Assembly: GCA_964427735.1 (NCBI GenBank)
Contig: CAYRUS010000001.1
Span: forward strand, 226,173-290,172
Direction of reading: 5' to 3'
From: an uncultured Gammaproteobacteria bacterium
Lineage (GTDB): Bacteria > Patescibacteriota > Microgenomatia > UBA8517
Length of the DNA: 64,000 nucleotides
Position numbers and translations under genes: made by a program. Position 1 is the stretch's first letter. The number at the start of each line of letters is the position of its first letter. Under the pieces are notes generated by a model. The model was not told the DNA's origin and made no database searches. It saw only the letters and a program-made list of their open reading frames with translations. This document shows positions 7,583 through 32,195 of the stretch, one piece after another.

Positions 7583-8647
7583 ATGCAACAAAAAGGGAAG
7601 AAACTATTTACAAAAAAAAGAGCTTTTTTATTAGCAATAATTTTATTTTTAGCTTTAATTTATGTTTATAGACAGTCTCAATCAGGTTTAGAAGTAGAAA
7701 TTACCTACCTTCAAAATAAGGACTTGTCTGAATCAATTAGTGCTGCCGGATCAATAGAACCAAACCAAAAAGCCACATTATCTTTTCCTTTGGGAGGAAA
7801 AATTTCATATATTGGAGTAAAAGAAGGAAATTTTGTTAATAAATCACAGGTGCTTGCAAGTCTCGATAAGAATGATTTAAACGCGACTTACCAACAATCA
7901 TTGTCAGACTTAAGACTAGCTGAAGCAACTTTAGAAAGAGTTTATGATAATGTAAAAGGAAATGAAGTAGCTGAAAGCTTTACAGCAAAGGAAACTCGCA
8001 CTCAAGCAGAAGTAGCTAAAGACAAAGCCTTTGATGCAGTTAAAATAGCAAGAAATGCCTTAATAAATGCTGACATTGTTTCCCCAATAACCGGGTACGT
8101 TGTTTCTGTATCAGATAGTTTTTATACAGGTGCTTTTGTGGGACCGACAGATACTATTGAAGTGGTTGACCCCTCTAGTCTTTATTTTGTGGTTGAAGTA
8201 AATGAAGTAGACATTCCTAATATTCATAAAGCCCAAAAAGCAACAATTACTTTGGATGCGTATCCAAATAATGAGATTAACAGTTTGGTCGAAAGTATTG
8301 ATATCGTGTCAACAACAACCTCAACAGGGGGAACTGGATATAAAGTAAAATTATCGTTACCAAAAAGCGAAAATGATTATTTGGTTGGCATGAATGGAGA
8401 TGCTGAGTTTTTAATTCAGGAAAAAAAGGACATTAAATCTGTTCCTATTACAGCAGTCACAGACATAAATGATAAAACGTATGTCTGGATTGTAAATAAA
8501 GAAAATACAGCTGAAAAAATAGAGGTTGTCACAGGCATTTCATCAATCAGTGATATAGAAATTATCTCAGGAGATATAGAAGGGCAACCGATAATTCTTA
8601 ATCCACCTGCAAACATTAGTGATGGCATGAAGGTAAGGATCTCCTAG
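7583..8647 (+). CDS. HlyD/MacA-family periplasmic adaptor subunit of efflux pump
   Basis: 354 aa with an N-terminal TM anchor, coiled-coil and beta-barrel composition. Immediately followed by an ABC ATPase and an FtsX-type permease. Confidence 0.65.
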
Positions 8648-8648
8648 A

Positions 8649-9332
8649 ATGCAAAGTGTAATTAGTACAGCAGATGTAAAAAAGACTTATATGATGGGCG
8701 AGGTGGAAGTTCATGCCTTAAAAGGAGTTACATTAAGTATAAACAACGGTGAATTTGTAGCAATCATCGGCTCTTCGGGAAGCGGTAAATCAACTCTCAT
8801 GCATATAATGGGACTTTTGGATACTCCTACTTCAGGAAAAGTTTATTTAGATGGAAAAGATGTCAGTAAACTTAATGAAGAAGAAAGTGCAACTGCAAGA
8901 AATAAACATATAGGTTTTGTTTTTCAATCATTTAATTTATTAAAAAGAACTACTGCAATTGATAATGTTGCTTTACCACTAATCTATTCAGGTGTACCTT
9001 ACGAGGAAAGGATGAAGAAAGCAGAAACACTACTTAATACCGTAGGACTAGGAGACAGACTTGACCATTTCTCAACTCAATTATCCGGTGGACAGCAGCA
9101 AAGAGTTGCAATTGCAAGAGCACTTGTTAATAATCCTAGCATTATCCTTGCTGATGAACCCACAGGAAATTTAGATTCCAAATCAGGAAAAGAGGTTATG
9201 AAACTTTTAACAGATCTTAATAAAAACGGCATTACTATAATTCTTGTAACACACGAACTTGATATTGCTAAATCAGCAAAAAGAATTATTGAATTAAAAG
9301 ATGGCCAAATAATAAAAGATACTATAAATTAA
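8649..9332 (+). CDS. ABC transporter ATP-binding protein (MacB/LolD-type)
   Basis: Walker [10 protein letters not shown], signature [15 protein letters not shown], Walker [12 protein letters not shown]. Confidence 0.85.
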
Positions 9333-9333
9333 T

Positions 9334-10563
9334 ATGCAAAAAATTATTCCTACTGGCTCTAGAGAAATTGTAAAACTTGCCTTGAATGCAATCTGGGTTA
9401 ATAAAACTCGATCCTCCCTAACATCGCTTGGCATTATTATTGGAGTGGCTTCTGTAATCTTACTAGTTTCTGTAGGGCAAGGCTTGCAAAACTATATAAC
9501 GAATCAATTTGAAGAACTTGGAAGCAATATGGTTATTGCACTGCCAGGACAAGTAGGAGGAGAAGATGGCGGGGTGAGCTTTGGGCAAGGTCCTCCTAAC
9601 TTCGCAGGAAGTAAACTTACTCTTGAACATACAAGAGATTTAAAAAACTTAGGATCTCCAATTGAATCAGTGGTTGCAAGTACAGAAATGCCAGCTTCAA
9701 TCAACTACAGAGGTGAGTCAAAATATACTACAATTGCCGGTATAACCCCTGAATACACGAAAATTAGAAACCTAAGGATTGGTGAAGGACGAAGCCTCAC
9801 TGAGTCTGACATAAATTTATCAAGAAAAGTAGTTATCATCGGAAAAGCAATCTCTGACGATTTATTCGGAGCTTCTACTGCACTAGAAAAGGATGTAACA
9901 ATAGGTGGAGATAAATTTAAAGTAATAGGTGTTTTAGATAGCATTGGAAGCCAAAGCATTGGATTTGATATAAATAATTTTGCAGCCATTCCAATTACAA
10001 CTGCACAACAATTATTTGGGACAGAATCAATCCAGGCAATAACAATCAAGGCAGAATCAAGAGAAGATATACCTGTTGTAATAAACATGACTGAAAGATA
10101 TTTAGAAAAAGTATTAGATGAGGATGATTTTTCTGTAGTGGACCAAAGTAGTTTATTGGAAACAATCAATAGTATTCTTGGAGTGGTAACTGCTGCTCTT
10201 GGAGGAATTGCAGCAATTTCATTAGTAGTAGGGGGCGTTGGTATTATGAATATCATGCTCGTATCCGTAACCGAAAGAACAAGAGAAATAGGACTAAGAA
10301 AGGCAGTAGGAGCCAAACCATCAGATATCCTCTACCAATTTATTGTTGAAGCAGTTACACTTTCAGCATTCGGTGGACTTGTTGGTATTATTATTGGGAC
10401 TGCAGGAGCCTACATTATTAATCAATTCTTTCCTGCAAGCGTTACTCTTTGGTCTGTTCTCCTAGCCTTTGGTGTATCTACTGCTGTGGGAATTATCTTT
10501 GGTGTTACACCTGCTTTAAGAGCTTCTAAGCTAAACCCAATTGAGGCATTAAGATACGAATAA
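9334..10563 (+). CDS. ABC transporter permease, FtsX/MacB-like with large periplasmic domain
   Basis: 409 aa. N-terminal TM helix, about 250-aa periplasmic region, then 3 C-terminal TM helices. Starts 2 nt after the ATPase gene. Confidence 0.75.
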   Translation: MQKIIPTGSREIVKLALNAIWVNKTRSSLTSLGIIIGVASVILLVSVGQGLQNYITNQFEELGSNMVIALPGQVGGEDGGVSFGQGPPNFAGSKLTLEHTRDLKNLGSPIESVVASTEMPASINYRGESKYTTIAGITPEYTKIRNLRIGEGRSLTESDINLSRKVVIIGKAISDDLFGASTALEKDVTIGGDKFKVIGVLDSIGSQSIGFDINNFAAIPITTAQQLFGTESIQAITIKAESREDIPVVINMTERYLEKVLDEDDFSVVDQSSLLETINSILGVVTAALGGIAAISLVVGGVGIMNIMLVSVTERTREIGLRKAVGAKPSDILYQFIVEAVTLSAFGGLVGIIIGTAGAYIINQFFPASVTLWSVLLAFGVSTAVGIIFGVTPALRASKLNPIEALRYE

Positions 10564-10578
10564 GCTATAATATAAACT

Positions 10579-11244
10579 ATGATAATTGATATTGTTACGC
10601 TATTCCCTGAAATGTTTGAGGGCCCATTTAGTGAATCAATAATAAAAAGAGCACAAGAAAAAGACCTTGTAAAAATCAATATTCATAATTTGAGGGATTG
10701 GGCTAGTGATAAACACAATACAGTTGACGACAGACCATATGGTGGTGGTCCAGGAATGGTAATAAAAGTTGATGTTGTAGATAAAGCACTTAAAGAAATT
10801 AAGAAACAAAAAAGAGGAACTACCCAAAAAATAGTATTACTAGAAGCAGCAGGTGAGATATTTACTCAAGAAAAAGCAGCTTCTTTGAGTAAAGTTGACC
10901 ATTTAATTCTCCTTGCAGGACATTACGAAGGCTTTGACGAGAGAGTAAGGGAACACTTAGTTGATGAGGTTATCTCTATAGGTAAGTTTGTTCTAACAGG
11001 TGGAGAATTGCCTGCCATGATTATAACAGATGCTGTCGTGAGATTAATTCCTGGAGTTTTAGGTAGTGAAGCATCTCTTAGCGAAGAGTCCTACAGCAAA
11101 CCAAACTGGCTAGAATACCCACAATATACAAGACCTGAAGAATATAATGATTGGAAAGTCCCTGAAATACTTCTATCCGGAGACCATAAGAGTATTGCTG
11201 AATGGAAAAAAAAGATGGCAGCTAAAGTGTCAAAGAAAGATTAG
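10579..11244 (+). CDS. trmD: tRNA (guanine37-N1)-methyltransferase
   Basis: MIIDIVTLFPEMFEGPF...RPYGGGPGMV...ILLAGHYEGFDERV are hallmark TrmD SPOUT motifs. Confidence 0.9.
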   Translation: MIIDIVTLFPEMFEGPFSESIIKRAQEKDLVKINIHNLRDWASDKHNTVDDRPYGGGPGMVIKVDVVDKALKEIKKQKRGTTQKIVLLEAAGEIFTQEKAASLSKVDHLILLAGHYEGFDERVREHLVDEVISIGKFVLTGGELPAMIITDAVVRLIPGVLGSEASLSEESYSKPNWLEYPQYTRPEEYNDWKVPEILLSGDHKSIAEWKKKMAAKVSKKD

Positions 11245-17727: not shown

Positions 17728-20700
17728 TTAATTGAATAAATTCTCCCTAGCCAAAGAAAGACCATCTATAACAACATTGCTGTCTTTGCGAATCTCGCTT
17801 TGCATAATCTGCAAAAAATCTCTGGCATTTTTCTCCCAACTAAATCCTTCAGCCCATTTTTTTGCTTTCCTGGAAAGCTCCATTCTTTTTTTATTGTTTT
17901 TTATAAGATCCTCCATAACTTGAGCAAGAGAATCTACATTTTTTAATGGAAACAAAATTCCAGTCTCTCCATCTACAACAGAGTCTTTAAGTCCACTTAC
18001 ATTAGAAGCTACAACAGGAGTAGCACATGCATTTGCCTCTAAAACTGTTATCCCCCAACCTTCAAAAGTAGATGGCTGAATAGATACCCAACTTTTTGAG
18101 AGCTCATTTATTTTTCTTTTCTCACTTACTTTCCCTGTAAGTTTTACAAACTCATTTAATTTATTTTTCATAATTAACTCCTTAATAAACTCTCTACTCT
18201 CACCGTCTCCTGCTATTGTTAATCTAGCTTCCGGGTATTTGGCTACAATCTTTGAGAATGCATTTATGGCAATATCTATGTTCTTATATGGCTTTAATCT
18301 ACCTAAATAAATAAATGATGGATATTTTGTCTTTTTAATTCCATTAACTTTTATATCTACACAAGGAGGAATAATGTGAATATTTTCTCTGTGATTAAGT
18401 CCGATTCTCTTTAACTCTTTTTTTGTTGATTCAGATACAGTAATAATAGTGCTTTTTCTATATGCAATCGGTATTAATTTCCCTTCTAAAAACATCGCAA
18501 TTCTGTTTAACGGAAACGGTAATAGCTGTCTGTGCACATCTTGGTGGATATGATGCAAAACAAGAATTTTGGGTAAGCGAGAATAAAATGGAGTAAAAAA
18601 CGGAATACCGTTTTCGCAATCAATTACAATGTCAAACTTTCCTCTAAATTTGATTGTGTAGTATAAAAATGCCCAAAGATAAACAGTATAAAATCCACCT
18701 CTTCTTATTATTTTTACCCCATCTATTTTTTCTGTACGTTTTGATTTTTGATCGCTACCGCAAAAAATTGTCACTTCATGTCCTTCCTTTACCCAATTTT
18801 TAGCTAAATTATGAATATAAACTTCAGCACCGCCTGCCCAAACATGCTTAATATCTCTCCAATTAAAAACCAATATTTTTAAACTACTAGCTTCTTTAGT
18901 TGAAGTGTTATTAAAGTTTGTGAATAAACCAAACAGGTCCTCAATATTTCCAATAATAGAGCCTGATTTGCTATAAACAATGTGCAACAGAGACACGACC
19001 AAAAGCTGTGTAATTGCAAGTCCGGATGCTATATTTGCTATCTCAACAAATGAAGAATGATAATTTGAAATAGCAAAAACTTGTACAAGGGAAAATCCTA
19101 CTGACAAAATTGCAAATGAATAATCATTTTTAATTAGGTGATAAGTTACAATTCCCACTGACACAGTAAAAGCAACCATCCCAATACAGAACCTAATTAA
19201 ATAGGGCAAAATTGGATAAGCTTTTGAGCCAAAGAGAATTGGAACTGTATAAAAACCAAACCAACCAATAAATACAAATCCAATTAAAGATGATGCAGTT
19301 GAAGCTAGAAGTAGCTTATTAAATATAGAAATAGTTTCTAAACCTTCTCCTTCTCTTTTACTTATCAGAGGTATAAAAAACTGAGAAAACAAAGTACCTA
19401 GATAAAAAACAATTTTCCCTGATAAAGAAAGCAAAGCGTAAATTCCTGCTTCTTCTGAAGGTAAGTAATGCTTTGCCATCACAACATCAATGCTCAAAAA
19501 TGCAACGGCAGATATATTTGTAAGCAATGAGGCAGAAAAGAAAGTGGTAGGAAATCTTAATAATTTTTCTGAAAGCTTGTTTGTTTTAACAAATCGTGTT
19601 TTTGCAATTACTAATTCACTTAATATAAATGCCACAACAACTGAAGCAGGAATAGCAACATAAATAAGCTCTGTATTATCTAACTCAATCGCAATGACAG
19701 TAAAAATTAATTTAGTCACTGCCTCAATAAGTAAAACAAATCCCAAGGTATAAAATTTTATGTTTCCTGATAAATATCCCTTATTTGCAGCTAGTAAAAA
19801 TCCTACTGTAAAAACAGGAAAGAAACTCAAGAAAGGCAAAATATCTGCTGTTTTAAAGTAGGAAAATAAATATGGATTTATTAGAAGCCATGATAAAGTT
19901 ATCAAAAATGAATATAAAACTATTCTTTTTTTTGTATTATCAAGAAAGCATCTGATTGGAAGCTTAACTTTCCCAAAGATATAACCGCTTTTATAAGAAA
20001 TCGCAGTATATAAAGAAACAAAAACAATGCCAACAATTCCAAATATGTTGGACATCAAACTTACCGTACCAAATTCATCAAAATCCAGATTGCGACCAAG
20101 ATATGCATTATAGAAAAAGTTTGCAAAATTAAAAAAGACAGTTACCCCAAACAAGAAAAGAAAAGAACCTTTTTCAGAATATTTCATCACATATTGTTTC
20201 AATAAATTTAACCTTGGCTTTGGCTGAGGTTGAGTAATTTGGATAGAAATCTTTTTCTTTTGAGGTGATTTTGGACCACCTTTTTTAAGATGAAGTCCAT
20301 GAATTGTTTTTTCCCAATAATGTGGTTTTACAATTAATTGATAAAAAGCAATTACAGCAGAGACACTTGCCATCATCCAATAAAATGGAATAAAAAAGAC
20401 ATGGTAAACCAAATTCCATTCATTTCTTTTGGCAAGCCCAATCATGTAGCTGTAGAAATATAGAAAATTTCCAAATACCAAACAGACCACAGCAACGTAA
20501 AAAACTAGCGGAGGAAATAAAGATTCAATTTGTAGACCAACATAATCATAAAATACAAAGTAAGAAATGGTTGCAATCCAAAAAATAGGGTTAATTATTA
20601 TAAAAACCATCCTCATACCAATAATCAGCTGGAACAAAATAGTATGGATTCCACTTTCCTTAAAAAATTGAACTGGGTTTCTCATATGTACCAGATAGGT

Positions 20701-22419
20701 TTGAAAGTAGCCCTTAATCCACCTTGATCTTTGCCTTAACCAATTTTTTAGATTACTGTTTGCTTCTTCATAGGTTGTTGAATCAATAATTGCAGTTTTG
20801 TAACCTGCCTTAAACAATCTGACTCCTAAGTCACAGTCTTCTGTAACATTAAATGGATCCCATCCATGAAGCTTACTTAAGTTATCTTTTCTAAAATGGT
20901 TGCTTGTTCCTCCAAGGGGAATACTTGTTCCTATTGTCTGTAGTCCAGGTAAAATTAGATCAAACCACAAAGAGTACTCTGCGGTAAAAAGACGAGTTAG
21001 GAAATTGTATTTACTATTGTAATAATTTAGTTTTGATTGCAAACATACATAGTTTTTTGGGAGTTTTTTGAAGGCAAGATAAGCTTTTTTAAGCTGTAGA
21101 GGATCAGGCTTGTCCTCTGCATCATAAATTACTATGTACTCTCCTTTTGAATGGAATAAACCATAATTGCAGGCCTTTGGTTTTGTTTTTGGCTTTGAAT
21201 CAGGAACAATTAAAACTTTTATGTACTTAGGTAAATTTATTTTTTTTGCTGTATTGATTGTTTCTGTGTCATCTTCCTCTAAAAGTAAAAGTACATCGAG
21301 CTTGCCTTTAGGCCAATCCAAATTTTTAATTGCTTCTACAAAATGAGGAAGCACTGAAGCTTCTTTGTACAAAGGGCAAAGAATACTATAAACAGGAAGG
21401 TCTTTGTTTTTAACAGCTTTTAGTTCTTTGTCTGGTATCGAAATTTCTGGAGATTTCCCCAAGCTTGTGGTGAGAATTGCCGCTGAAAACGCTAAATCCA
21501 AAAAATAAATTAGTGTCATTACTGCAATAAAGACAATTATTAAAAGCTTCAAATTAAGCACTGCTCCAATAAGAGCAAGCACAAGTAATGTTAGGAAAAA
21601 TAGTTTTTGATTAATTGTAAAAGTTGTGATTGCTGATTTATCTACGGGTAAATCTGTATAAGTAACGAATTTTTTACCTTTGTAAAAAATAGTAGGAAAT
21701 TTTGCGTATTTATCGTATATTTTGTAAACTTTTGAAGGCTTAAATTTAAGAATTAATGAGTTTTTGGCAATTTCGTATGATGCACTTAAGATATTTATTT
21801 TTGAACTGCCCTTGTTTCTTTTAGTAAACTCAATATCAATTCCCACTATACTTTCACCCAAATCTAAGGCAGTTTTTAGTAAAGATAAATCTAATGTCCA
21901 AGGAGAAACATCTTCATCCTTAATTTGACTAATGATCTCTTTTTTGAAGACTTTCATTCCAGATTGAGTGTCTACTTTAAATCCGTGCAGCAGTCTTTCA
22001 AAAAAAAGTAGATGAAGCTTTGATAATATTTTCCTTTTTAAGTCAACATCTCTGTAGATTCTATTGCCTACTACAACACCATGCTTTTGTGATAGCTTTA
22101 GCATTTCAGGTAATTTTTCAGGCGGGTACTGAAGATCCCCATCTATCATTGCTATTTTGATATATTTAGCTTTTTTAACTCCTTCAATAATACTATAAGA
22201 TTTCCCCTGCTTTCCTTTTTTGGGTAATATTTTTATTGGTTTTCTACCTTTGTTTTTTTTAATTTCTTTTACTGTTTTGTCTGTTGAAGCATCATCTACA
22301 AAAATAATCTCATATTTGATTTTCGCTTTCCTCATGACCTCGGAAATACGTTTTATGAGATTTGCTATATTACCCTCTTCATTCCAAACAGGGACAATGA
22401 TGGACATTTCCTTCTTCAT
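17728..22419 (-). CDS. giant multidomain glycosyltransferase: GT2 + processive GT2 (QxxRW) + about 14-TM region + GT4
   Basis: 1563 aa. Residues about 1-230 are GT2 (IIVPVWNEEG...VDDASTD...DGDLQ). Residues about 330-620 are a second GT2 with DAED and QRSRWIKG (cellulose/chitin-synthase-like processive motif), followed by TM helices. A further polytopic block follows. Residues about 1180-1563 are GT4 (GGAEVY...GRLKPYKNID...FEGWGITVLEANACATPVV). Confidence 0.8.
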   Translation of the reverse strand: MKKEMSIIVPVWNEEGNIANLIKRISEVMRKAKIKYEIIFVDDASTDKTVKEIKKNKGRKPIKILPKKGKQGKSYSIIEGVKKAKYIKIAMIDGDLQYPPEKLPEMLKLSQKHGVVVGNRIYRDVDLKRKILSKLHLLFFERLLHGFKVDTQSGMKVFKKEIISQIKDEDVSPWTLDLSLLKTALDLGESIVGIDIEFTKRNKGSSKINILSASYEIAKNSLILKFKPSKVYKIYDKYAKFPTIFYKGKKFVTYTDLPVDKSAITTFTINQKLFFLTLLVLALIGAVLNLKLLIIVFIAVMTLIYFLDLAFSAAILTTSLGKSPEISIPDKELKAVKNKDLPVYSILCPLYKEASVLPHFVEAIKNLDWPKGKLDVLLLLEEDDTETINTAKKINLPKYIKVLIVPDSKPKTKPKACNYGLFHSKGEYIVIYDAEDKPDPLQLKKAYLAFKKLPKNYVCLQSKLNYYNSKYNFLTRLFTAEYSLWFDLILPGLQTIGTSIPLGGTSNHFRKDNLSKLHGWDPFNVTEDCDLGVRLFKAGYKTAIIDSTTYEEANSNLKNWLRQRSRWIKGYFQTYLVHMRNPVQFFKESGIHTILFQLIIGMRMVFIIINPIFWIATISYFVFYDYVGLQIESLFPPLVFYVAVVCLVFGNFLYFYSYMIGLAKRNEWNLVYHVFFIPFYWMMASVSAVIAFYQLIVKPHYWEKTIHGLHLKKGGPKSPQKKKISIQITQPQPKPRLNLLKQYVMKYSEKGSFLFLFGVTVFFNFANFFYNAYLGRNLDFDEFGTVSLMSNIFGIVGIVFVSLYTAISYKSGYIFGKVKLPIRCFLDNTKKRIVLYSFLITLSWLLINPYLFSYFKTADILPFLSFFPVFTVGFLLAANKGYLSGNIKFYTLGFVLLIEAVTKLIFTVIAIELDNTELIYVAIPASVVVAFILSELVIAKTRFVKTNKLSEKLLRFPTTFFSASLLTNISAVAFLSIDVVMAKHYLPSEEAGIYALLSLSGKIVFYLGTLFSQFFIPLISKREGEGLETISIFNKLLLASTASSLIGFVFIGWFGFYTVPILFGSKAYPILPYLIRFCIGMVAFTVSVGIVTYHLIKNDYSFAILSVGFSLVQVFAISNYHSSFVEIANIASGLAITQLLVVSLLHIVYSKSGSIIGNIEDLFGLFTNFNNTSTKEASSLKILVFNWRDIKHVWAGGAEVYIHNLAKNWVKEGHEVTIFCGSDQKSKRTEKIDGVKIIRRGGFYTVYLWAFLYYTIKFRGKFDIVIDCENGIPFFTPFYSRLPKILVLHHIHQDVHRQLLPFPLNRIAMFLEGKLIPIAYRKSTIITVSESTKKELKRIGLNHRENIHIIPPCVDIKVNGIKKTKYPSFIYLGRLKPYKNIDIAINAFSKIVAKYPEARLTIAGDGESREFIKELIMKNKLNEFVKLTGKVSEKRKINELSKSWVSIQPSTFEGWGITVLEANACATPVVASNVSGLKDSVVDGETGILFPLKNVDSLAQVMEDLIKNNKKRMELSRKAKKWAEGFSWEKNARDFLQIMQSEIRKDSNVVIDGLSLARENLFN

Positions 22420-25559: not shown

Positions 25560-26663
25560 ATGCAGTCTAGGCCTTTAAATAGAAACCTCCACAAAGCCAA
25601 CAAAGCAAAAAAGGATGAATTCTATACTCAACTCACAGATATAGAAAAAGAGCTCAGGCACTACAAAGACCAGTTTAAAGGTAAAGTGGTTTACTGCAAT
25701 TGTGATGATCCTTTTGAAAGCAATTTTTTCAAATATTTTGCATCTAGTTTCAATAGCTTGGGGCTAAAAAAATTAATAACAACAAGCTTCAGCGGCTCAC
25801 CAATAACTGGAAAACAGCTATCTCTTCTGGACATGGAAGGACTAAAGCCAGAGGGCAAGCAGCCTTTTAAGATTGTAATAACAGAAGTACCAGACAAAAA
25901 TGCAGATGGTGCAGTTGATATTGCAGATGTGGAATGGCTTTTAAAACACGACGGCAATACCTCAACTCCACTAAAAGAAAATGGAGACTTTAGGAGTGAA
26001 GAATGCATTGAGCTTTTAAAAGAATCAGATATTGTTGTCACCAACCCACCTTTTAGCTTATTTCGCGAATATGTAGCACAGCTGGTCGAGTATGATAAAA
26101 AGTTTTTGATAATTGGAAATTTGAATTCGATTACTTATAAAGAAATATTTAAGTTAATTAAAAACAATCAATTATGGCTTGGGTATAATAACGGACATAA
26201 AGTTTACATGGTTCCAGATGATTATGAACAAAAAAATATTTTTATTGGTGAGGATGGGAAAAAATATGCAAAGATGGGAAATACCGGTTGGTTTACAAAT
26301 CTTGATGTCAGTAAAAGACATGAAATTCTTACGCTGTATAAGAAATATAGTCCAGAAGAGTATCCCAAGTATGCAAATTATGATGCAATAGAAGTATCTA
26401 AAGTGTCAGATATCCCAATGGATTATGAGGGAGAAATGGGAGTACCTGTAACATTCTTGGAAAAATATAATCCAGACCAATTCGAGATTATCGGTTCAAG
26501 TAGTAATTTATCAAATCCAATAAAAACTCCAAAAGGATTAGTTTATCGATATACAGACCGTAATGGGTATGTCCGACAGGCAGCAAATGAGCGTTTTGCT
26601 TTACCAGATGGCGATACATGGAGACGAATTTATGACCGGATTGTGATTAAAAAAATAAAATAA
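25560..26663 (+). CDS. N6-adenine DNA methyltransferase, EcoRI-methylase-like family
   Basis: The catalytic motif IV VVTNPPF is present. The N-terminal KDEFYTQ...VVYCNCDDPFESNFFKYF resembles the EcoRI-methylase family N-terminus as I recall it. No cognate restriction endonuclease gene was recognised nearby. Confidence 0.65.
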   Translation: MQSRPLNRNLHKANKAKKDEFYTQLTDIEKELRHYKDQFKGKVVYCNCDDPFESNFFKYFASSFNSLGLKKLITTSFSGSPITGKQLSLLDMEGLKPEGKQPFKIVITEVPDKNADGAVDIADVEWLLKHDGNTSTPLKENGDFRSEECIELLKESDIVVTNPPFSLFREYVAQLVEYDKKFLIIGNLNSITYKEIFKLIKNNQLWLGYNNGHKVYMVPDDYEQKNIFIGEDGKKYAKMGNTGWFTNLDVSKRHEILTLYKKYSPEEYPKYANYDAIEVSKVSDIPMDYEGEMGVPVTFLEKYNPDQFEIIGSSSNLSNPIKTPKGLVYRYTDRNGYVRQAANERFALPDGDTWRRIYDRIVIKKIK

Positions 26664-26736: not shown

Positions 26737-29520
26737 ATGAACGAAAACACAGGAACAGTAAGTCCACTATTAAAGAACTTTTTTGAAAACTTCTTGTCTA
26801 CAGAACTAGAAAAAGAAGATATCTCTGACGAATATTTAACTCTTTTGAAAATATTATGGCTTAGTTTTGACGAGATTATTACAAAAACTAAAATTACAAG
26901 GCGTATTTATACACTACAACTTATTGAAAAATATCTTATTAATAGCGAGTACCGCAAATCCGTCGATGAAACAGAATTGCCGAAAACTGACGTTTTTCTT
27001 GAGTCTCAGGGTTCTGACACACCTAAAATTAAACTAAAGAAAATCAATATTGTAAATTTCCGAGGATTTAGAGCAAACTCCGATGGTACTGGAAGAAAAA
27101 TCTTTTTCAACGATAAAGCAAGCTTATTTTTTGCACCTAATGGCGGAGGTAAAAGTAGTCTTTGTGAAGCTTTAGAATGGACACTTACCGGTGATACTTC
27201 AGAGCATGTGCAACGTAGCACCGAATCGACAGACACTTATTTTCAAAATAGGGATATTGGTGAACCCAGCTATAAGAAAACTAAAATTGATATGCATGAA
27301 GGGTTCAATCCTGACATCCCTAACATTGCTTTTGATAGATGCTTTTTAGAGAAAAATAGAATCGAAAAGTTTGCCAAGATTGCTACGCAAAAAGGTGTTG
27401 AAGTTCAAAATATACTGGGTGAATTATTTGGGCTTACAGAGATCGTAGATTTTTTCAAAGAGTTTGGACAAGACTTATTTCCCACACCTAATGAAAAAGG
27501 TGAAAGAGAAAATTGGCAGACTTGGCTAGATTGGGAGGTAAAAAAGCGTGAATTGGAAAAGGGTTTAGAAGAGTCAAAAAGAGAAGAAATGACAGCTTTT
27601 GAGGAATTTAACAGACTTCTTGATAACAAAAAATACGATGATAAGAAAAAAGAGATAGAAGAAGAAATTAAGAAACTAAAAAATGAACTAGAGTCTTTAA
27701 GCGTGGATAATAGTACTGAGTTTTCAAGCGAAGATTTTTTGAAGATCGTTGATGAATTTCTTTATAAATTAAAACAGTGGAAAGAATGTAAGAATGAAAT
27801 TGAAAAAAATGCAGCCAATCTGAATTTCGAAAGCTTGTATCAGACTGCAAGTAAGATTTTTCAAAACAATCAAAACATAAGTGAATGTCCTCTCTGTGAT
27901 ACACCAATTACACAGAATGGCGGTCTACTTTCAAAGCATAAATGTGTAGTTACCGATCCTAGAGATAAAACCAAGTCAGAGCTAAAAAAATTGGAAGCCT
28001 TAACTGCATTGAAAAGCAAAAAATCAAACACCGAGTCCGATATTAGAAACCATTTCGCAAAATTTAAAGATGAGTGGACAAAAGTTCACTCAAACTTAAA
28101 AGATGAAAATTGGTCCGTTATATCAAATAATGTCTCTAATCCTGAAATACCAAATATCAATACACAAAGTATCGACTCACTTGTATATGATGACTTTGAG
28201 GCATTTGTTGATAGTTGCGAAAAAGCGTTAAATCAAGACTTCTCTCAAATAAAAGAGGTGGAAAAAATCATCTCTTCATATAAGCACAAAAGGCAAGAGT
28301 TAAAGTCAAGGAAGCAAGAACAAAACGAAAAAATTAACAAACTAAGTGAAACTCTCGATAATCTCGAAACAGCATATGAAACTTACTCGAATAAGAAAGC
28401 TATATGCGAGAAAGGCAATGTGAGATTGGAAAAGTTAAAAAAACAATCTAGAAACTCGGGTGTTTTTAAGAAACTGCTAGACGAGTACACTAAGCTATAT
28501 GCCTCACTTCATGACTTTCTTACATCCGCCATACTGACAGAAGCAAAAGATATTGACAGCTTAGTGACTGGTTTTTATCGTGCACTAAACCTTCACGACC
28601 ACGATGGTGAGATTGTTAAAGTTATAAAATTTCCAAAGAAAATTCAGGATGATTTTTGTCTCATTTATAAGAAGGACGAAGAAAGCATATGTAATGCGTT
28701 GCAGGTATTAAGTGAGGGACATTTAAAAACCCTCGGATTGGCAGCTTTACTTGCAAGAGCAGCTAGATTAAATACTTCGTTACTTGTTTTTGATGATGCT
28801 ATAAACGCAATAGATTCAGATCACAGGGACAACATAGCTCACCTTCTTACTGGAAGGTTTGGGGATGATCAGGGTGTGTTGGCCTTTGGAAACAAATGGA
28901 GGCAGATAAAAGATTACTTGGGCAATTGCCAATTTATTATTACCTCCCATGACCGTTTCTTTGACGAAAAGATCGCTAACCTTTTCGAAAAAGACAACCA
29001 AACAAGATATGTTCTTTATTGCAGTCAGAATGGAATCGATTTTTGCGAAAGAGGCACCCCGGCAAATTTTGAGAAGAAAATAGAGGACTACCTAAATCCA
29101 GCTACTCAAGATATTCGATCCGCAATATTTTACTGTCGTATTTGGCTAGAAGATATTCTCTTTAACATTGCAATTCATTTTAGAAAACCGGGTAATAATA
29201 AGCGGATTGAGTTCGAGAACATCATGGATAGGAGAACTAAATCTTTGAAAAACCCAGAATTAATTGTGCTTCTGGATAAGTTGGTATCTAATTTAAACAA
29301 CAAGGATGCATCAGACGAATATAAACAAATTGCCAGTATATTGGAACAAATTAAACAGGAAAATGATGGGAAATATGTTTGGTTCTTTGAAATATTAAAC
29401 CAAGAGAGCCATTATCGAAGGTTTGACCACGTAGATGTCTCAAATGCACCTACAAGCAAAGAGGTAGAGACTATTTTCGAGAATATTCAAAAGATACATA
29501 AGTTGTATTCAGGAATATAA
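26737..29520 (+). CDS. Rad50/SbcC/RloC-like ABC-type ATPase with long coiled-coil, CxxC hook-like motif and an unknown C-terminal domain
   Basis: 927 aa. Walker A FAPNGGGKSS (about residue 135), coiled-coil-rich middle with CPLC (about residue 385), signature-like LSEGHLKTLGLAALLA, Walker B LLVFDDA, H-loop ITSHD, then a 170-aa C-terminal extension. Confidence 0.7.
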   Translation: MNENTGTVSPLLKNFFENFLSTELEKEDISDEYLTLLKILWLSFDEIITKTKITRRIYTLQLIEKYLINSEYRKSVDETELPKTDVFLESQGSDTPKIKLKKINIVNFRGFRANSDGTGRKIFFNDKASLFFAPNGGGKSSLCEALEWTLTGDTSEHVQRSTESTDTYFQNRDIGEPSYKKTKIDMHEGFNPDIPNIAFDRCFLEKNRIEKFAKIATQKGVEVQNILGELFGLTEIVDFFKEFGQDLFPTPNEKGERENWQTWLDWEVKKRELEKGLEESKREEMTAFEEFNRLLDNKKYDDKKKEIEEEIKKLKNELESLSVDNSTEFSSEDFLKIVDEFLYKLKQWKECKNEIEKNAANLNFESLYQTASKIFQNNQNISECPLCDTPITQNGGLLSKHKCVVTDPRDKTKSELKKLEALTALKSKKSNTESDIRNHFAKFKDEWTKVHSNLKDENWSVISNNVSNPEIPNINTQSIDSLVYDDFEAFVDSCEKALNQDFSQIKEVEKIISSYKHKRQELKSRKQEQNEKINKLSETLDNLETAYETYSNKKAICEKGNVRLEKLKKQSRNSGVFKKLLDEYTKLYASLHDFLTSAILTEAKDIDSLVTGFYRALNLHDHDGEIVKVIKFPKKIQDDFCLIYKKDEESICNALQVLSEGHLKTLGLAALLARAARLNTSLLVFDDAINAIDSDHRDNIAHLLTGRFGDDQGVLAFGNKWRQIKDYLGNCQFIITSHDRFFDEKIANLFEKDNQTRYVLYCSQNGIDFCERGTPANFEKKIEDYLNPATQDIRSAIFYCRIWLEDILFNIAIHFRKPGNNKRIEFENIMDRRTKSLKNPELIVLLDKLVSNLNNKDASDEYKQIASILEQIKQENDGKYVWFFEILNQESHYRRFDHVDVSNAPTSKEVETIFENIQKIHKLYSGI

Positions 29521-29585: not shown

Positions 29586-29936
29586 TCAAAATATCAAAAT
29601 TAATAGAGATGACATTATTATAATCGGAAAAATTAAGTGTAGTAAAAGTATGAAAAATAAACCACTATTTCCTTTATTGTAATATGTTTTATATAACAAT
29701 TCTGGAAAGCCAGTAGTAACAAAACCAGCCAGAAAGAAAATTACAGACACAACAACACCCACAGTCCGATAAGACGAATCACTAGTCAAAAGGATTGTGG
29801 CTTGTGAGAAAAAGTAATACTCAAAAGAGGTTGTATTTTTCTCGAAAAATTCTCCCAGAAGCTCGAATATATATGCCAGACCAAGAAAGAATCTTGCCAA
29901 TGGCCTGGTGAATGCTGATTTTGCGTGTTTTTCCAT
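29586..29936 (-). CDS. small membrane protein, hypothetical
   Basis: 116 aa with 3 predicted TM helices, convergent with the ATPase gene. Confidence 0.35.
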   Translation of the reverse strand: MEKHAKSAFTRPLARFFLGLAYIFELLGEFFEKNTTSFEYYFFSQATILLTSDSSYRTVGVVVSVIFFLAGFVTTGFPELLYKTYYNKGNSGLFFILLLHLIFPIIIMSSLLILIF

Positions 29937-30082: not shown

Positions 30083-30445
30083 ATGGCATTGGATGGTGAA
30101 GATATGGATCAAATTGAAGAACTTTCAAGGAGTATTTCAGGAGCTAGAGAAGAGAGTTCAAGACGTAATCATGAAATTGAGTTAAGAATTTTAGAAAATG
30201 AGTTGGCATTGTTAGGTAATACTATTCGTGAACGGAAAGCTACAATTCCAGGGTATTCACGAGAACTTAATAATTTTATTAAACTAATTGCAAGTTTTAA
30301 AAAAGCACTTGATACAGAAATAAGAAATAAATATCCTTCAATAGATAGACATAGTTTCAGCATGAGATTTAATGAATTATATGAACCTGGAATTAATAAA
30401 ATTGATAAGCATGTGTTTAAAATAGCAACTACCGGAGGAAACTAA
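30083..30445 (+). CDS. hypothetical protein
   Basis: 120-aa ORF, charged and helical, sitting between the ATPase and the DUF262-HNH gene. Confidence 0.4.
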   Translation: MALDGEDMDQIEELSRSISGAREESSRRNHEIELRILENELALLGNTIRERKATIPGYSRELNNFIKLIASFKKALDTEIRNKYPSIDRHSFSMRFNELYEPGINKIDKHVFKIATTGGN

Positions 30446-30534: not shown

Positions 30535-30795
30535 ATGACTGACACCAAAATGCTTCAAGCCATTCTTGATGGACAAAGAGCTATAAAAGAAGAGTTGAAA
30601 GATGATATAAACTCTGTTCGTAAAGAAGTCAATAGATTACATAAAAAAGCCGATGAAGGTTTCAGAATTGTTAATAACAGATTGGATAATATTGGAAAAA
30701 GTGTAGCTTTTCTTGAGGATGATGCTCCAACTCGTGAAGAACACAATAGACTGGAAAAACGAGTAATAAAAATTGAAAACAAGCTTCAAACTTAA
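30535..30795 (+). CDS. hypothetical coiled-coil protein
   Basis: 86 aa with heptad-like charged repeats, on the same strand as its neighbours. Confidence 0.4.
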   Translation: MTDTKMLQAILDGQRAIKEELKDDINSVRKEVNRLHKKADEGFRIVNNRLDNIGKSVAFLEDDAPTREEHNRLEKRVIKIENKLQT

Positions 30796-31091: not shown

Positions 31092-32195
31092 ATGAAAATT
31101 CAATTGCACAAATTAACAGTACGCGAAGTTGTAGATGGTTACGTTGACAATGATGAAGAAGGTGTTGTGGGGTTTGGTGGGAAGCTTGATATACGACCTA
31201 AGTATCAACGTGAATTTGTATATAAAGACAAACAACGTGATGCAGTTATTGATACCGTCAAAAATGGTTTTCCCTTAAATGTGATGTATTGGGTAGTGCG
31301 TGATGATGGTGGGTATGAAGTACTGGATGGACAACAAAGAACAATTAGCCTTGCCCAATATATAAATGGTGACTTTTCTGTTGAATTTAACGGCAGGCTA
31401 GCTATGTTTCACAACTTAACCACCGAGGAGCAAAACCAGATATTAGATTATGAGCTAATGATTTATTTCTGTGAAGGTACGGACAAGGAGAGGTTGGATT
31501 GGTTTAGGATAATTAACATAGCAGGAGAAAAGCTAACAGACCAAGAGTTAAGGAATGCTGTTTATACAGGTCCATGGCTAACCGATGCAAAGCTCAAATT
31601 CAGTAAAACAAATTGCGTAGCATACCTTCTGGCTACCGATGGTGGTACTCTACTTTCTGGCTCACCATTAAGACAGGAATACCTGGAAACTGCAATCTCC
31701 TGGATAAATAATGGTGAAATTGAAGAATATATGGCCATACATCAGCATGATGAAAACGCTGAGGAGCTTTGGAACTACTTCCAGGAACTGATTTCCTGGG
31801 TAAGAAAAACTTTCCCAAACTACAGAAAAGAGATGACAAACGTGAACTGGGGAGAGCTTTATAATCAATTTAAAAACGAGCAGTTTAATCCAGAAAAACT
31901 TGAGTCGGAAATCAAAGTCTTGATGCAGGACGAGGATGTTACCAGAAAGTCTGGTATTTACCCTTATGTCCTAACAAGAAAAGAAAAGTTTTTAAACATC
32001 AGAGCATTTACAGACAAGATGAAACGGGAAGCTTTTGAGAGGCAAAACGGTATTTGCCCCTTTTGTAAAAATACGTTTGAGTTGGAAGAAATGGAAGCTG
32101 ATCATATCACCCCATGGCACGAAGGTGGAAAAACAGTTTCAGAAAACTGCCAAATGCTTTGCAAAGAAGACAATAGAACAAAGGCAGGAAAGTAA
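31092..32195 (+). CDS. DUF262 (ParB-like, DGQQR) - HNH endonuclease fusion, GmrSD-like candidate type IV restriction/defense nuclease
   Basis: N-terminal PKYQREFVY...LDGQQRTISL is the DUF262 hallmark. The C-terminal CPFCKN...ADHITPWHEGG...NCQMLCKEDNRTK is an HNH His-Me finger with two Cys pairs. Confidence 0.75.
   Translation: MKIQLHKLTVREVVDGYVDNDEEGVVGFGGKLDIRPKYQREFVYKDKQRDAVIDTVKNGFPLNVMYWVVRDDGGYEVLDGQQRTISLAQYINGDFSVEFNGRLAMFHNLTTEEQNQILDYELMIYFCEGTDKERLDWFRIINIAGEKLTDQELRNAVYTGPWLTDAKLKFSKTNCVAYLLATDGGTLLSGSPLRQEYLETAISWINNGEIEEYMAIHQHDENAEELWNYFQELISWVRKTFPNYRKEMTNVNWGELYNQFKNEQFNPEKLESEIKVLMQDEDVTRKSGIYPYVLTRKEKFLNIRAFTDKMKREAFERQNGICPFCKNTFELEEMEADHITPWHEGGKTVSENCQMLCKEDNRTKAGK

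Follow-up and report, generated by a model that had tools for sequence, protein, structure and literature searches.

A Rad50-like ABC ATPase with a predicted zinc hook and a HEPN-like tail in a restriction–modification locus of a Patescibacteria genome

The ATPase gene and its domains

A 64,000-nucleotide stretch of contig CAYRUS010000001.1 (positions 226,173 to 290,172 of the forward strand; assembly GCA_964427735.1), deposited as an uncultured Gammaproteobacteria bacterium and placed by GTDB in the Patescibacteriota, was analysed as a whole and is called the window here. It carries an open reading frame (ORF) at 26737..29520 (+), in window positions, for a 927-amino-acid (aa) Rad50/SMC-like ABC ATPase with a predicted zinc hook and a C-terminal HEPN-like domain, as characterized by ORF translation, Pfam, PADLOC, a family alignment, AlphaFold2 and Foldseek. 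Translation of the exact coordinates placed the Walker A motif or P-loop, PNGGGKSS, at aa 134–141 (27136..27159, +), a CPLC motif at aa 384–387 (27886..27897, +), the signature LSEGH at aa 658–662 (28708–28722), the Walker B motif LLVFDD at aa 682–687 (28780–28797) and the H-loop TSHD at aa 736–739 (28942–28953). The last three motifs, with a D-loop NAIDSDHR, lie in the C-terminal half of the ABC head (28708..28953, +). A first-pass annotation of this DNA had listed the ORF, these ABC motifs and the CPLC pair, all of which lie where it put them and are invariant in the family. It had also set Walker A near the N terminus; the motif is as described, but the ABC head starts only after about 97 aa that form a conserved helical domain.

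The model built by AlphaFold2 on the family alignment (predicted local distance difference test score, pLDDT, of 80.5 for the 927-aa protein) contains a helical N-terminal domain, a split ABC head, two helical arms and an all-helical C-terminal domain at aa 778–926. The N-terminal domain (aa 1–97; 26737..27027, +) is family-specific, with helices at aa 10–90 predicted at pLDDT 83–95; it is conserved within the family, keeps few positions in the distant clade described below and has no Pfam match. The arms, an ascending one at about aa 251–376 (27487..27864, +) and a descending one at about aa 408–602 with a break at aa 454–505 (27958..28542, +), are joined by a loop at aa 377–407. In the model this loop sets CPLC at the apex between two long helices, which agrees with the earlier description of a split head and a coiled coil with a central CPLC, and the motif is predicted to be a zinc hook of the Rad50 type. 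A Foldseek search with the whole model returned Rad50, cohesin SMCs, Lamassu LmuB and JetC as the nearest structures.

A homolog search found 45 relatives, 36 of them full-length at 31–100% identity and the remainder forming a distant group at 24–28%. The few full-length relatives that carry an organism name come from metagenome bins of Patescibacteria/Parcubacteria, in the candidate phyla radiation (CPR), and the distant clade was sampled by 50 members from Pseudomonas, Vibrio, enterobacteria, Bacillus and others. Every ATPase motif, as well as C384-P-L-C387-x-T-P, is invariant in a 35-member family alignment. When the distant clade is included, PNGGGK, C384, P385, C387, SEGH, FDD and H738-D739 are kept in 56 of 56 sequences, and the hook pattern CP[LAT]C holds in all 56 relatives at identities down to 25%, so the conservation of these motifs goes far beyond chance. 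Pfam assigned the protein to the generic families AAA_23, SMC_N and AAA_21 and to nothing else, and no NCBIfam model scored above its cut-off. The top PADLOC match was LmuB (E = 2.9e-16, aa 97–751); PHROGs gave an SbcC-like match (3e-16) and otherwise coiled-coil noise, and sequence searches of the PDB with the full-length and tail profiles gave generic SMC, Rad50 and PtuA P-loop matches or noise. Annotated family members go under the names 'AAA family ATPase', 'hypothetical', 'ATP-binding protein', 'RecF' or 'DndD'.

The C-terminal extension, to which the first-pass annotation could give no fold, is a HEPN-like all-alpha domain (aa 772–927; 29050..29517, +) with the four-helix up-down arrangement of the HEPN fold. 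Invariant in both clades are D792, R794, A796, R801-x3-E805 (29137–29151), N888-Q-E-x-H892 (29398–29412) and E909. The motif that ends in the histidine reads N-Q-E-[SH]-H, with a Ser before H892 in the clade of the window protein (N888-Q-E-S-H892), and the spacer between E805 and H892 is 86 aa long in the window protein and 65–91 aa across the family. The polar residues are kept across more than 70% sequence divergence, and their invariance argues for catalysis. An exhaustive HMMER search with the tail profile against 1.84 billion representatives returned 55 clusters, all from the same family; the full-length ones are about 800–990 aa long with the tail at the C terminus; the others have the look of fragments. 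By this search the tail occurs in this family alone. Foldseek with the tail alone found nothing significant in the PDB, and an hhalign comparison of the tail profile with a neighbouring AbiV-type HEPN protein (see below) was negative.

Genomic contexts in the window and in relatives

Upstream of the ATPase gene lies an EcoRI-family N6-adenine DNA methyltransferase gene, the M half of a type II restriction–modification (R-M) pair (25560..26663, +; Pfam EcoRI_methylase, 1e-143; PADLOC MTase_II, 3e-128). The R half, a DUF262(GmrSD_N)-HNH endonuclease gene (31092..32195, +), lies 1.6 kb downstream of the ATPase gene; it has Pfam matches to GmrSD_N and HNH and a full-length match to the REBASE-derived PADLOC model REase_II (PDLC03418, 1e-143). 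On plasmids of unrelated bacteria, several of the best-matching records show DUF262-HNH orthologs of 54–61% identity adjoining EcoRI-family methylase genes. In Aeromonas, Variovorax, Gordonia, Sulfitobacter and others the methylase gene is directly followed by the DUF262 gene, contiguous or overlapping, and in Aeromonas caviae the stop of M overlaps the start of R. By this sequence comparison, the two window genes are a cognate type II R-M pair that is normally contiguous and is split here by a 4.4-kb insert. Because the two co-occur as a cognate pair on plasmids, the methyltransferase is not the orphan it had been taken for; likewise, the multi-gene anti-phage module of methyltransferase, DUF262-HNH protein and ATPase that had been proposed gives way to an ordinary two-gene type II pair with the ATPase gene embedded in it.

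Besides the ATPase gene, the insert holds three small ORFs, which are absent from the relatives' loci. One would encode a hydrophobic protein of 116 aa (29586..29936, −), has no family match and is annotated as a gene in only one of two public assemblies. The other two, of 120 aa and 86 aa (30083–30445 and 30535–30795, +), look coiled-coil-like by eye only; they have no Pfam, NCBIfam or PADLOC family and only weak PHROG matches. No repeats were found flanking the insert. The earlier statement that the ATPase gene has no SbcD/Mre11 partner holds: none is adjacent, and neither the window nor 18 related contexts yielded an Mre11/SbcD phosphoesterase gene.

The close clade was represented by 18 distinct contexts, the window included. 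In 16 of them R-M genes lie directly upstream of the ATPase gene in the same orientation, at gaps of −35 to 143 nucleotides (nt), and they span types I, II, IIS, IIG, ISP and III: type I (loci L001, L003, L078 and L146), type IIG or MmeI-like (L005 and L147), a PLD-SNF2 helicase with an MmeI-like methylase (L008 and L148), type ISP (L075), type III (L009, L074, L081 and L084), EcoRII with Dcm (L077), AlwI with two Dam methylases (L080) and the EcoRI-family methylase of the window. At the two non-R-M exceptions, L007 and L072, the gene follows helicase/nuclease genes. Proteins 78–85% identical to the window protein follow differing R-M types. Neighbourhood conservation, which had been put forward as a check on the first-pass annotation, takes the form of restriction linkage in the close clade, and sbcD linkage, a core-genome context and a housekeeping C-terminal domain were all unseen.

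Downstream of the ATPase gene, many of these loci encode a nuclease of one family or another: a Cas4-like PD-(D/E)xK protein of 251 aa (three loci), PIN_12, an AbiV-type HEPN protein, GmrSD_N, DUF2779 and DUF2130 (two loci). No such gene adjoins the window copy or the copy in L008. The 251-aa proteins, which have C-terminal cysteines, follow the ATPase gene at a gap of 1–2 nt with differing R-M types upstream (L001, 10766–11521; L146, 5141–5896; L148, 10061–10816); they are 63–77% identical to one another, and their ATPases are 55–58% identical. This protein may be a co-inherited partner of the ATPase. DUF2779 proteins with weak Cas4-like PD-(D/E)xK matches also occur in or beside L007 (12884–14344, −), L008 (1–493) and L009 (10826–12301). 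Around the CPR islands we further noted small HTH_17/MerR-type genes (L001, 1091–1261; L007, 7819–7992; L148, 428–625 and 14804–15013) and large serine recombinases (L001, 12493–13815; L003, 1–1360; L148, 15040–16608), a pattern that suggests that these R-M/ATPase islands move as cassettes, each with a regulator of its own.

The distant proteobacterial clade comprises at least 268 clusters, in which the homolog is typically a lone gene. Methylase genes are neighbours in 2 of 60 loci; integrases, transposases and P2-type replication and portal genes are found near the homologs, and five IMG/VR viral contigs carry a distant homolog. One representative, the 941-aa protein P0097 of Escherichia coli, is encoded in a P2-like prophage, where its gene alone fills the interval from gpA to ogr/portal (8001–10826 in loci L149–L152), and is present on 24 assembled contigs. 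It is absent from the RefSeq complete E. coli genomes, and a DNA search of those genomes with the Erwinia and E. coli-metagenome homologs found no homolog. The site between gpA and ogr/portal of P2 is the old/tin defence hotspot, which also houses other defence genes (Rousset et al., PMC9122126). A lone gene in a validated defence hotspot argues that the ATPase–HEPN polypeptide is self-sufficient.

Three minor features of this clade were recorded. At many Pseudomonas loci the homolog is divergent from a gene for a protein of about 1306–1321 aa, located about 250–390 bp upstream on the opposite strand (L019, L021, L023, L024, L027, L031, L034, L059, L087, L089, L091, L101, L132 and L134). CHAT-domain proteins are encoded near the homolog in four loci. 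Some proteobacterial members have an extra C-terminal coiled coil past the HEPN-like domain, such as residues 859–918 of P0037 (Vibrio cyclitrophicus, locus L010); in part of these members it gives a weak match to the valyl-tRNA synthetase tRNA-binding arm (PF10458, E = 4.5e-4) that may be coiled-coil noise or a hint of tRNA binding.

An RloC-like reading and its rivals

PrrC and RloC are nucleases that cut tRNA in the anticodon loop and leave a 2′,3′-cyclic phosphate. They share the catalytic pattern Arg-X3-Glu-X36–52-His, often with a Ser before the His (PMC2610378), and in PrrC both N352, as N352-x3-H356, and R349 are essential (PMC3025547). In RloC, control of the anticodon nuclease falls to a zinc hook together with an ATPase that responds to DNA breaks (PMC3458546, PMC3874168). 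The window tail has R801-x3-E805, N888-x3-H892 and S891 before H892, but with 86 aa between Glu and His and no Arg 4–7 residues ahead of the His. RloC of Geobacillus kaustophilus and Acinetobacter baylyi, a wobble-nucleotide-excising anticodon nuclease, likewise has an ABC head whose halves flank a coiled coil bearing a CxxC zinc hook, and beyond it a HEPN-class C-terminal nuclease domain with R-x3-E...(S)H. It combines sensor and effector in one polypeptide and occurs both linked to R-M genes and on its own in mobile DNA. PrrC, the tRNA-Lys anticodon nuclease of the type Ic EcoprrI R-M locus, also joins an ABC ATPase to a C-terminal HEPN-class RNase, with the motif elements R-x3-E and N-x3-H, and is likewise embedded in or appended to an R-M operon. 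PrrC is, however, about 400 aa long, lacks both coiled coil and zinc hook, and serves one R-M type through a specific protein contact, whereas the window family accompanies six R-M types; this speaks for a generic trigger and against a specific contact of the PrrC kind.

The protein's architecture, its conserved motifs, its HEPN-like fold and its R-M linkage, together with the mobile elements and defence hotspots that house its distant relatives, lead us to favour on balance, with modest conviction, the reading of this gene as a self-contained RloC-like abortive-infection RNase under the control of a DNA-sensing ATPase, acting in second-line anti-phage defence. The Rad50-type ATPase, with its two coiled-coil arms ending in the hook, would be the sensor and switch; the HEPN-like domain would serve as effector and would most likely be an RNase that needs no metal and cuts tRNA or another RNA of translation; and the gene would be a passenger or guard of R-M operons, here placed between M and R of a type II pair. 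In an uninfected cell the ATPase head and hook would keep the HEPN domains apart or inactive. Restriction that makes DNA ends, or fails to clear them, or a phage that disables the R-M system, would be the trigger; by analogy with RloC, the Rad50-like hook suggests DNA ends. DNA binding and ATP-driven head engagement would then unite two HEPN domains, and RNA cleavage would arrest translation before the phage cycle is completed.

A more specific version of this proposal is possible but doubtful: the family may be a 'break reader' indifferent to restriction type, in which the hook ATPase senses the ends made by any R-M system, or their abnormal persistence, and ATP-driven dimerization leads to RNA cleavage by a variant HEPN site, not described before, composed of R-x3-E and N-Q-E-x-H and lacking the Rx4-6H Arg. 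If so, this would be a widespread and unnamed single-gene defence, to which CPR contribute about 45 clusters and Proteobacteria, P2 hotspots included, at least 268, and its CPR members would also recruit interchangeable second nucleases.

Several observations weigh against the RloC-like reading. The Arg of the canonical HEPN Rx4-6H motif is missing from positions 4–7 before the His in both clades, so that this motif is absent; position −7 is Glu or Gly, leaving no equivalent of PrrC R349 there. The catalytic loop (aa 891–904) was modelled at pLDDT below 50, and this, together with the missing Arg, means that catalytic competence is not assured. Pfam AAA_13 (PF13166), which we take to be the family model of PrrC and RloC, matched neither the whole protein (E ≤ 0.01) nor the isolated tail (E ≤ 1). 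At the level of sequence there is no link to PrrC or RloC: the exhaustive search with the tail profile brought up its own family alone, and no model named PrrC or RloC was among the PADLOC matches. A co-oriented nuclease-type gene lies within about 130 nt downstream in 9–10 of 13 assessable close-clade loci and may itself be the true effector. A single protein family could hardly make contact with six structurally unrelated R-M types, and the linkage may be mere co-transfer within defence islands and no functional coupling, for which 'guilt by embedding' (bioRxiv 2024.01.29.577857) provides a frame.

The downstream nucleases lend themselves to a two-component scheme of the Lamassu kind, in which the ATPase would be a DNA-sensing SMC scaffold, the tail a non-catalytic regulatory or partner-binding part, and killing the task of the variable nuclease. 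We consider this unlikely. It would accommodate the LmuB matches in PADLOC and among the top Foldseek structures, the recurrence of the 251-aa PD-(D/E)xK protein in three differing R-M contexts and the non-canonical HEPN motif; LmuB, like JetC, DndD and PbeC, has a long coiled coil too, and its ATPase core is the closest among the PADLOC defence models. LmuB is not known to have a CxxC hook motif. LmuB is described as working with interchangeable effectors, whereas the window family has an effector-like domain fused in cis and no LmuA or LmuC partner. None of the downstream proteins has a match to an LmuA or LmuC model, and they belong to unrelated families, some of which (GmrSD/BrxU-like, AbiV) are defence genes in their own right. 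Neither the window copy nor L008 has a nuclease neighbour, the proteobacterial clade is typically single-gene, the P2 hotspot cargo included, and the invariant polar residues of the tail fit an active site better than a docking surface. Membership in Lamassu was rejected on the lack of LmuA and LmuC matches among the neighbouring genes; of the resemblance to Lamassu/DndD-type sensors seen at first, the LmuB-like ATPase core survives, without counterparts of LmuA or LmuC.

It is improbable that the protein is an R-M accessory or DNA-metabolism factor, a Rad50/SbcC-like end-binding ATPase that would process or tether restriction fragments or modulate restriction (alleviation, self-protection) without killing the cell. 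Rad50/SbcC is the best overall structural match and shares the CPxC hook at the coiled-coil apex; the SbcC-like PHROG match and the gene's position as the 3′-most member of operons, whatever their R-M type, point the same way, and CPR genomes are small and often lack the canonical end-processing machinery. Yet the coiled coil of the window protein is much shorter (about 120–190 aa per arm), an Mre11/SbcD-type partner was found in none of the examined loci, the tail resembles RNase-type HEPN toxins and not DNA-repair modules, and distant relatives occupy prophage and integrase islands that have no R-M genes. The distribution of the family is patchy, mobile and not core, in a defence-island setting, with closely similar proteins behind differing R-M types. 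Least of all do we expect a divergent true RloC ortholog of the AAA_13 family, which would make the gene an already known one. The same domain order, the CxxC hook, R-x3-E...(S)H and partial sub-threshold AAA_13 matches in the P-loop region of a few relatives (P0041, P0136 and P0182) speak for it, but the model misses the window protein and 10 other proteins with the same tail, and the sole match examined, that of P0041, covers the P-loop region only at 30.4 bits against a 36-bit cut-off. The E-to-H spacer is 65–91 aa against 36–52 aa in RloC, making for a longer HEPN domain, the proteins measure 900–970 aa against 658–897 aa and have the additional N-terminal domain, and equivalents of PrrC R349 and H295 were not found. 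A regex scan of 2 Mb of the relatives' loci found no PrrC-like ORF, and no family member is named RloC or anticodon nuclease in public annotations. Moreover, rloC is rarely linked to R-M genes, in contrast to the CPR clade of the window family, which almost always is. The proposal of an RloC-type anticodon nuclease thus stands for the architecture (ABC head, CxxC coiled coil, nuclease-type tail, R-x3-E...(S)H and R-M linkage) and falls for AAA_13 membership, the spacer and the Rx4-6H Arg. As far as sequence can tell, the protein is RloC-like on paper and not a demonstrable member of the RloC family.

Relation to known ABC–HEPN proteins and other features of the window

Fusions of ABC ATPases to HEPN domains that are tied to R-M systems are a recognized theme (PMC3710099), and the family is therefore not categorically new. 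Two groups of Anantharaman et al. 2013, APECO1_4465 and ERFG_01251, likewise combine an ABC ATPase with a C-terminal HEPN domain, as compared by description only, and the former is reported from prophages, a trait it shares with the proteobacterial clade here. The family may be identical to the APECO1_4465 group or to the recently named single-gene 'Toga' system (PMC13586616). What we describe is an unnamed lineage set apart by an N-terminal domain of its own, a HEPN motif that departs from the canonical one, a near-obligate linkage to R-M genes of any type in CPR and interchangeable downstream nucleases.

If the RloC-like reading is true, this would be a third sequence-independent lineage of suicide RNases built from an ABC ATPase and a HEPN domain, beside PrrC and RloC, and one that combines the Rad50-like hook switch of RloC with the obligatory R-M linkage of PrrC. 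Near-identical proteins behind six mechanistically different R-M types make testable a question raised earlier for RloC, namely whether the signal is a generic DNA break or a specific contact with a restriction enzyme, and the homolog in the E. coli P2 prophage is an experimentally tractable representative. The family would give the ultra-small CPR/Patescibacteria, whose immune repertoire is little studied, one more defence module, and hundreds of entries now called 'AAA family ATPase', 'DndD' or 'RecF' could be relabelled.

Elsewhere in the window, no Rfam family (tRNA, rRNA or riboswitch) reached its gathering score in the whole 64 kb, and promoter and terminator scans did no better than shuffled sequences. 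A 1563-aa ORF near the locus (17728–22419, −) has no PADLOC match, and the GC content is 30–37% throughout the window.

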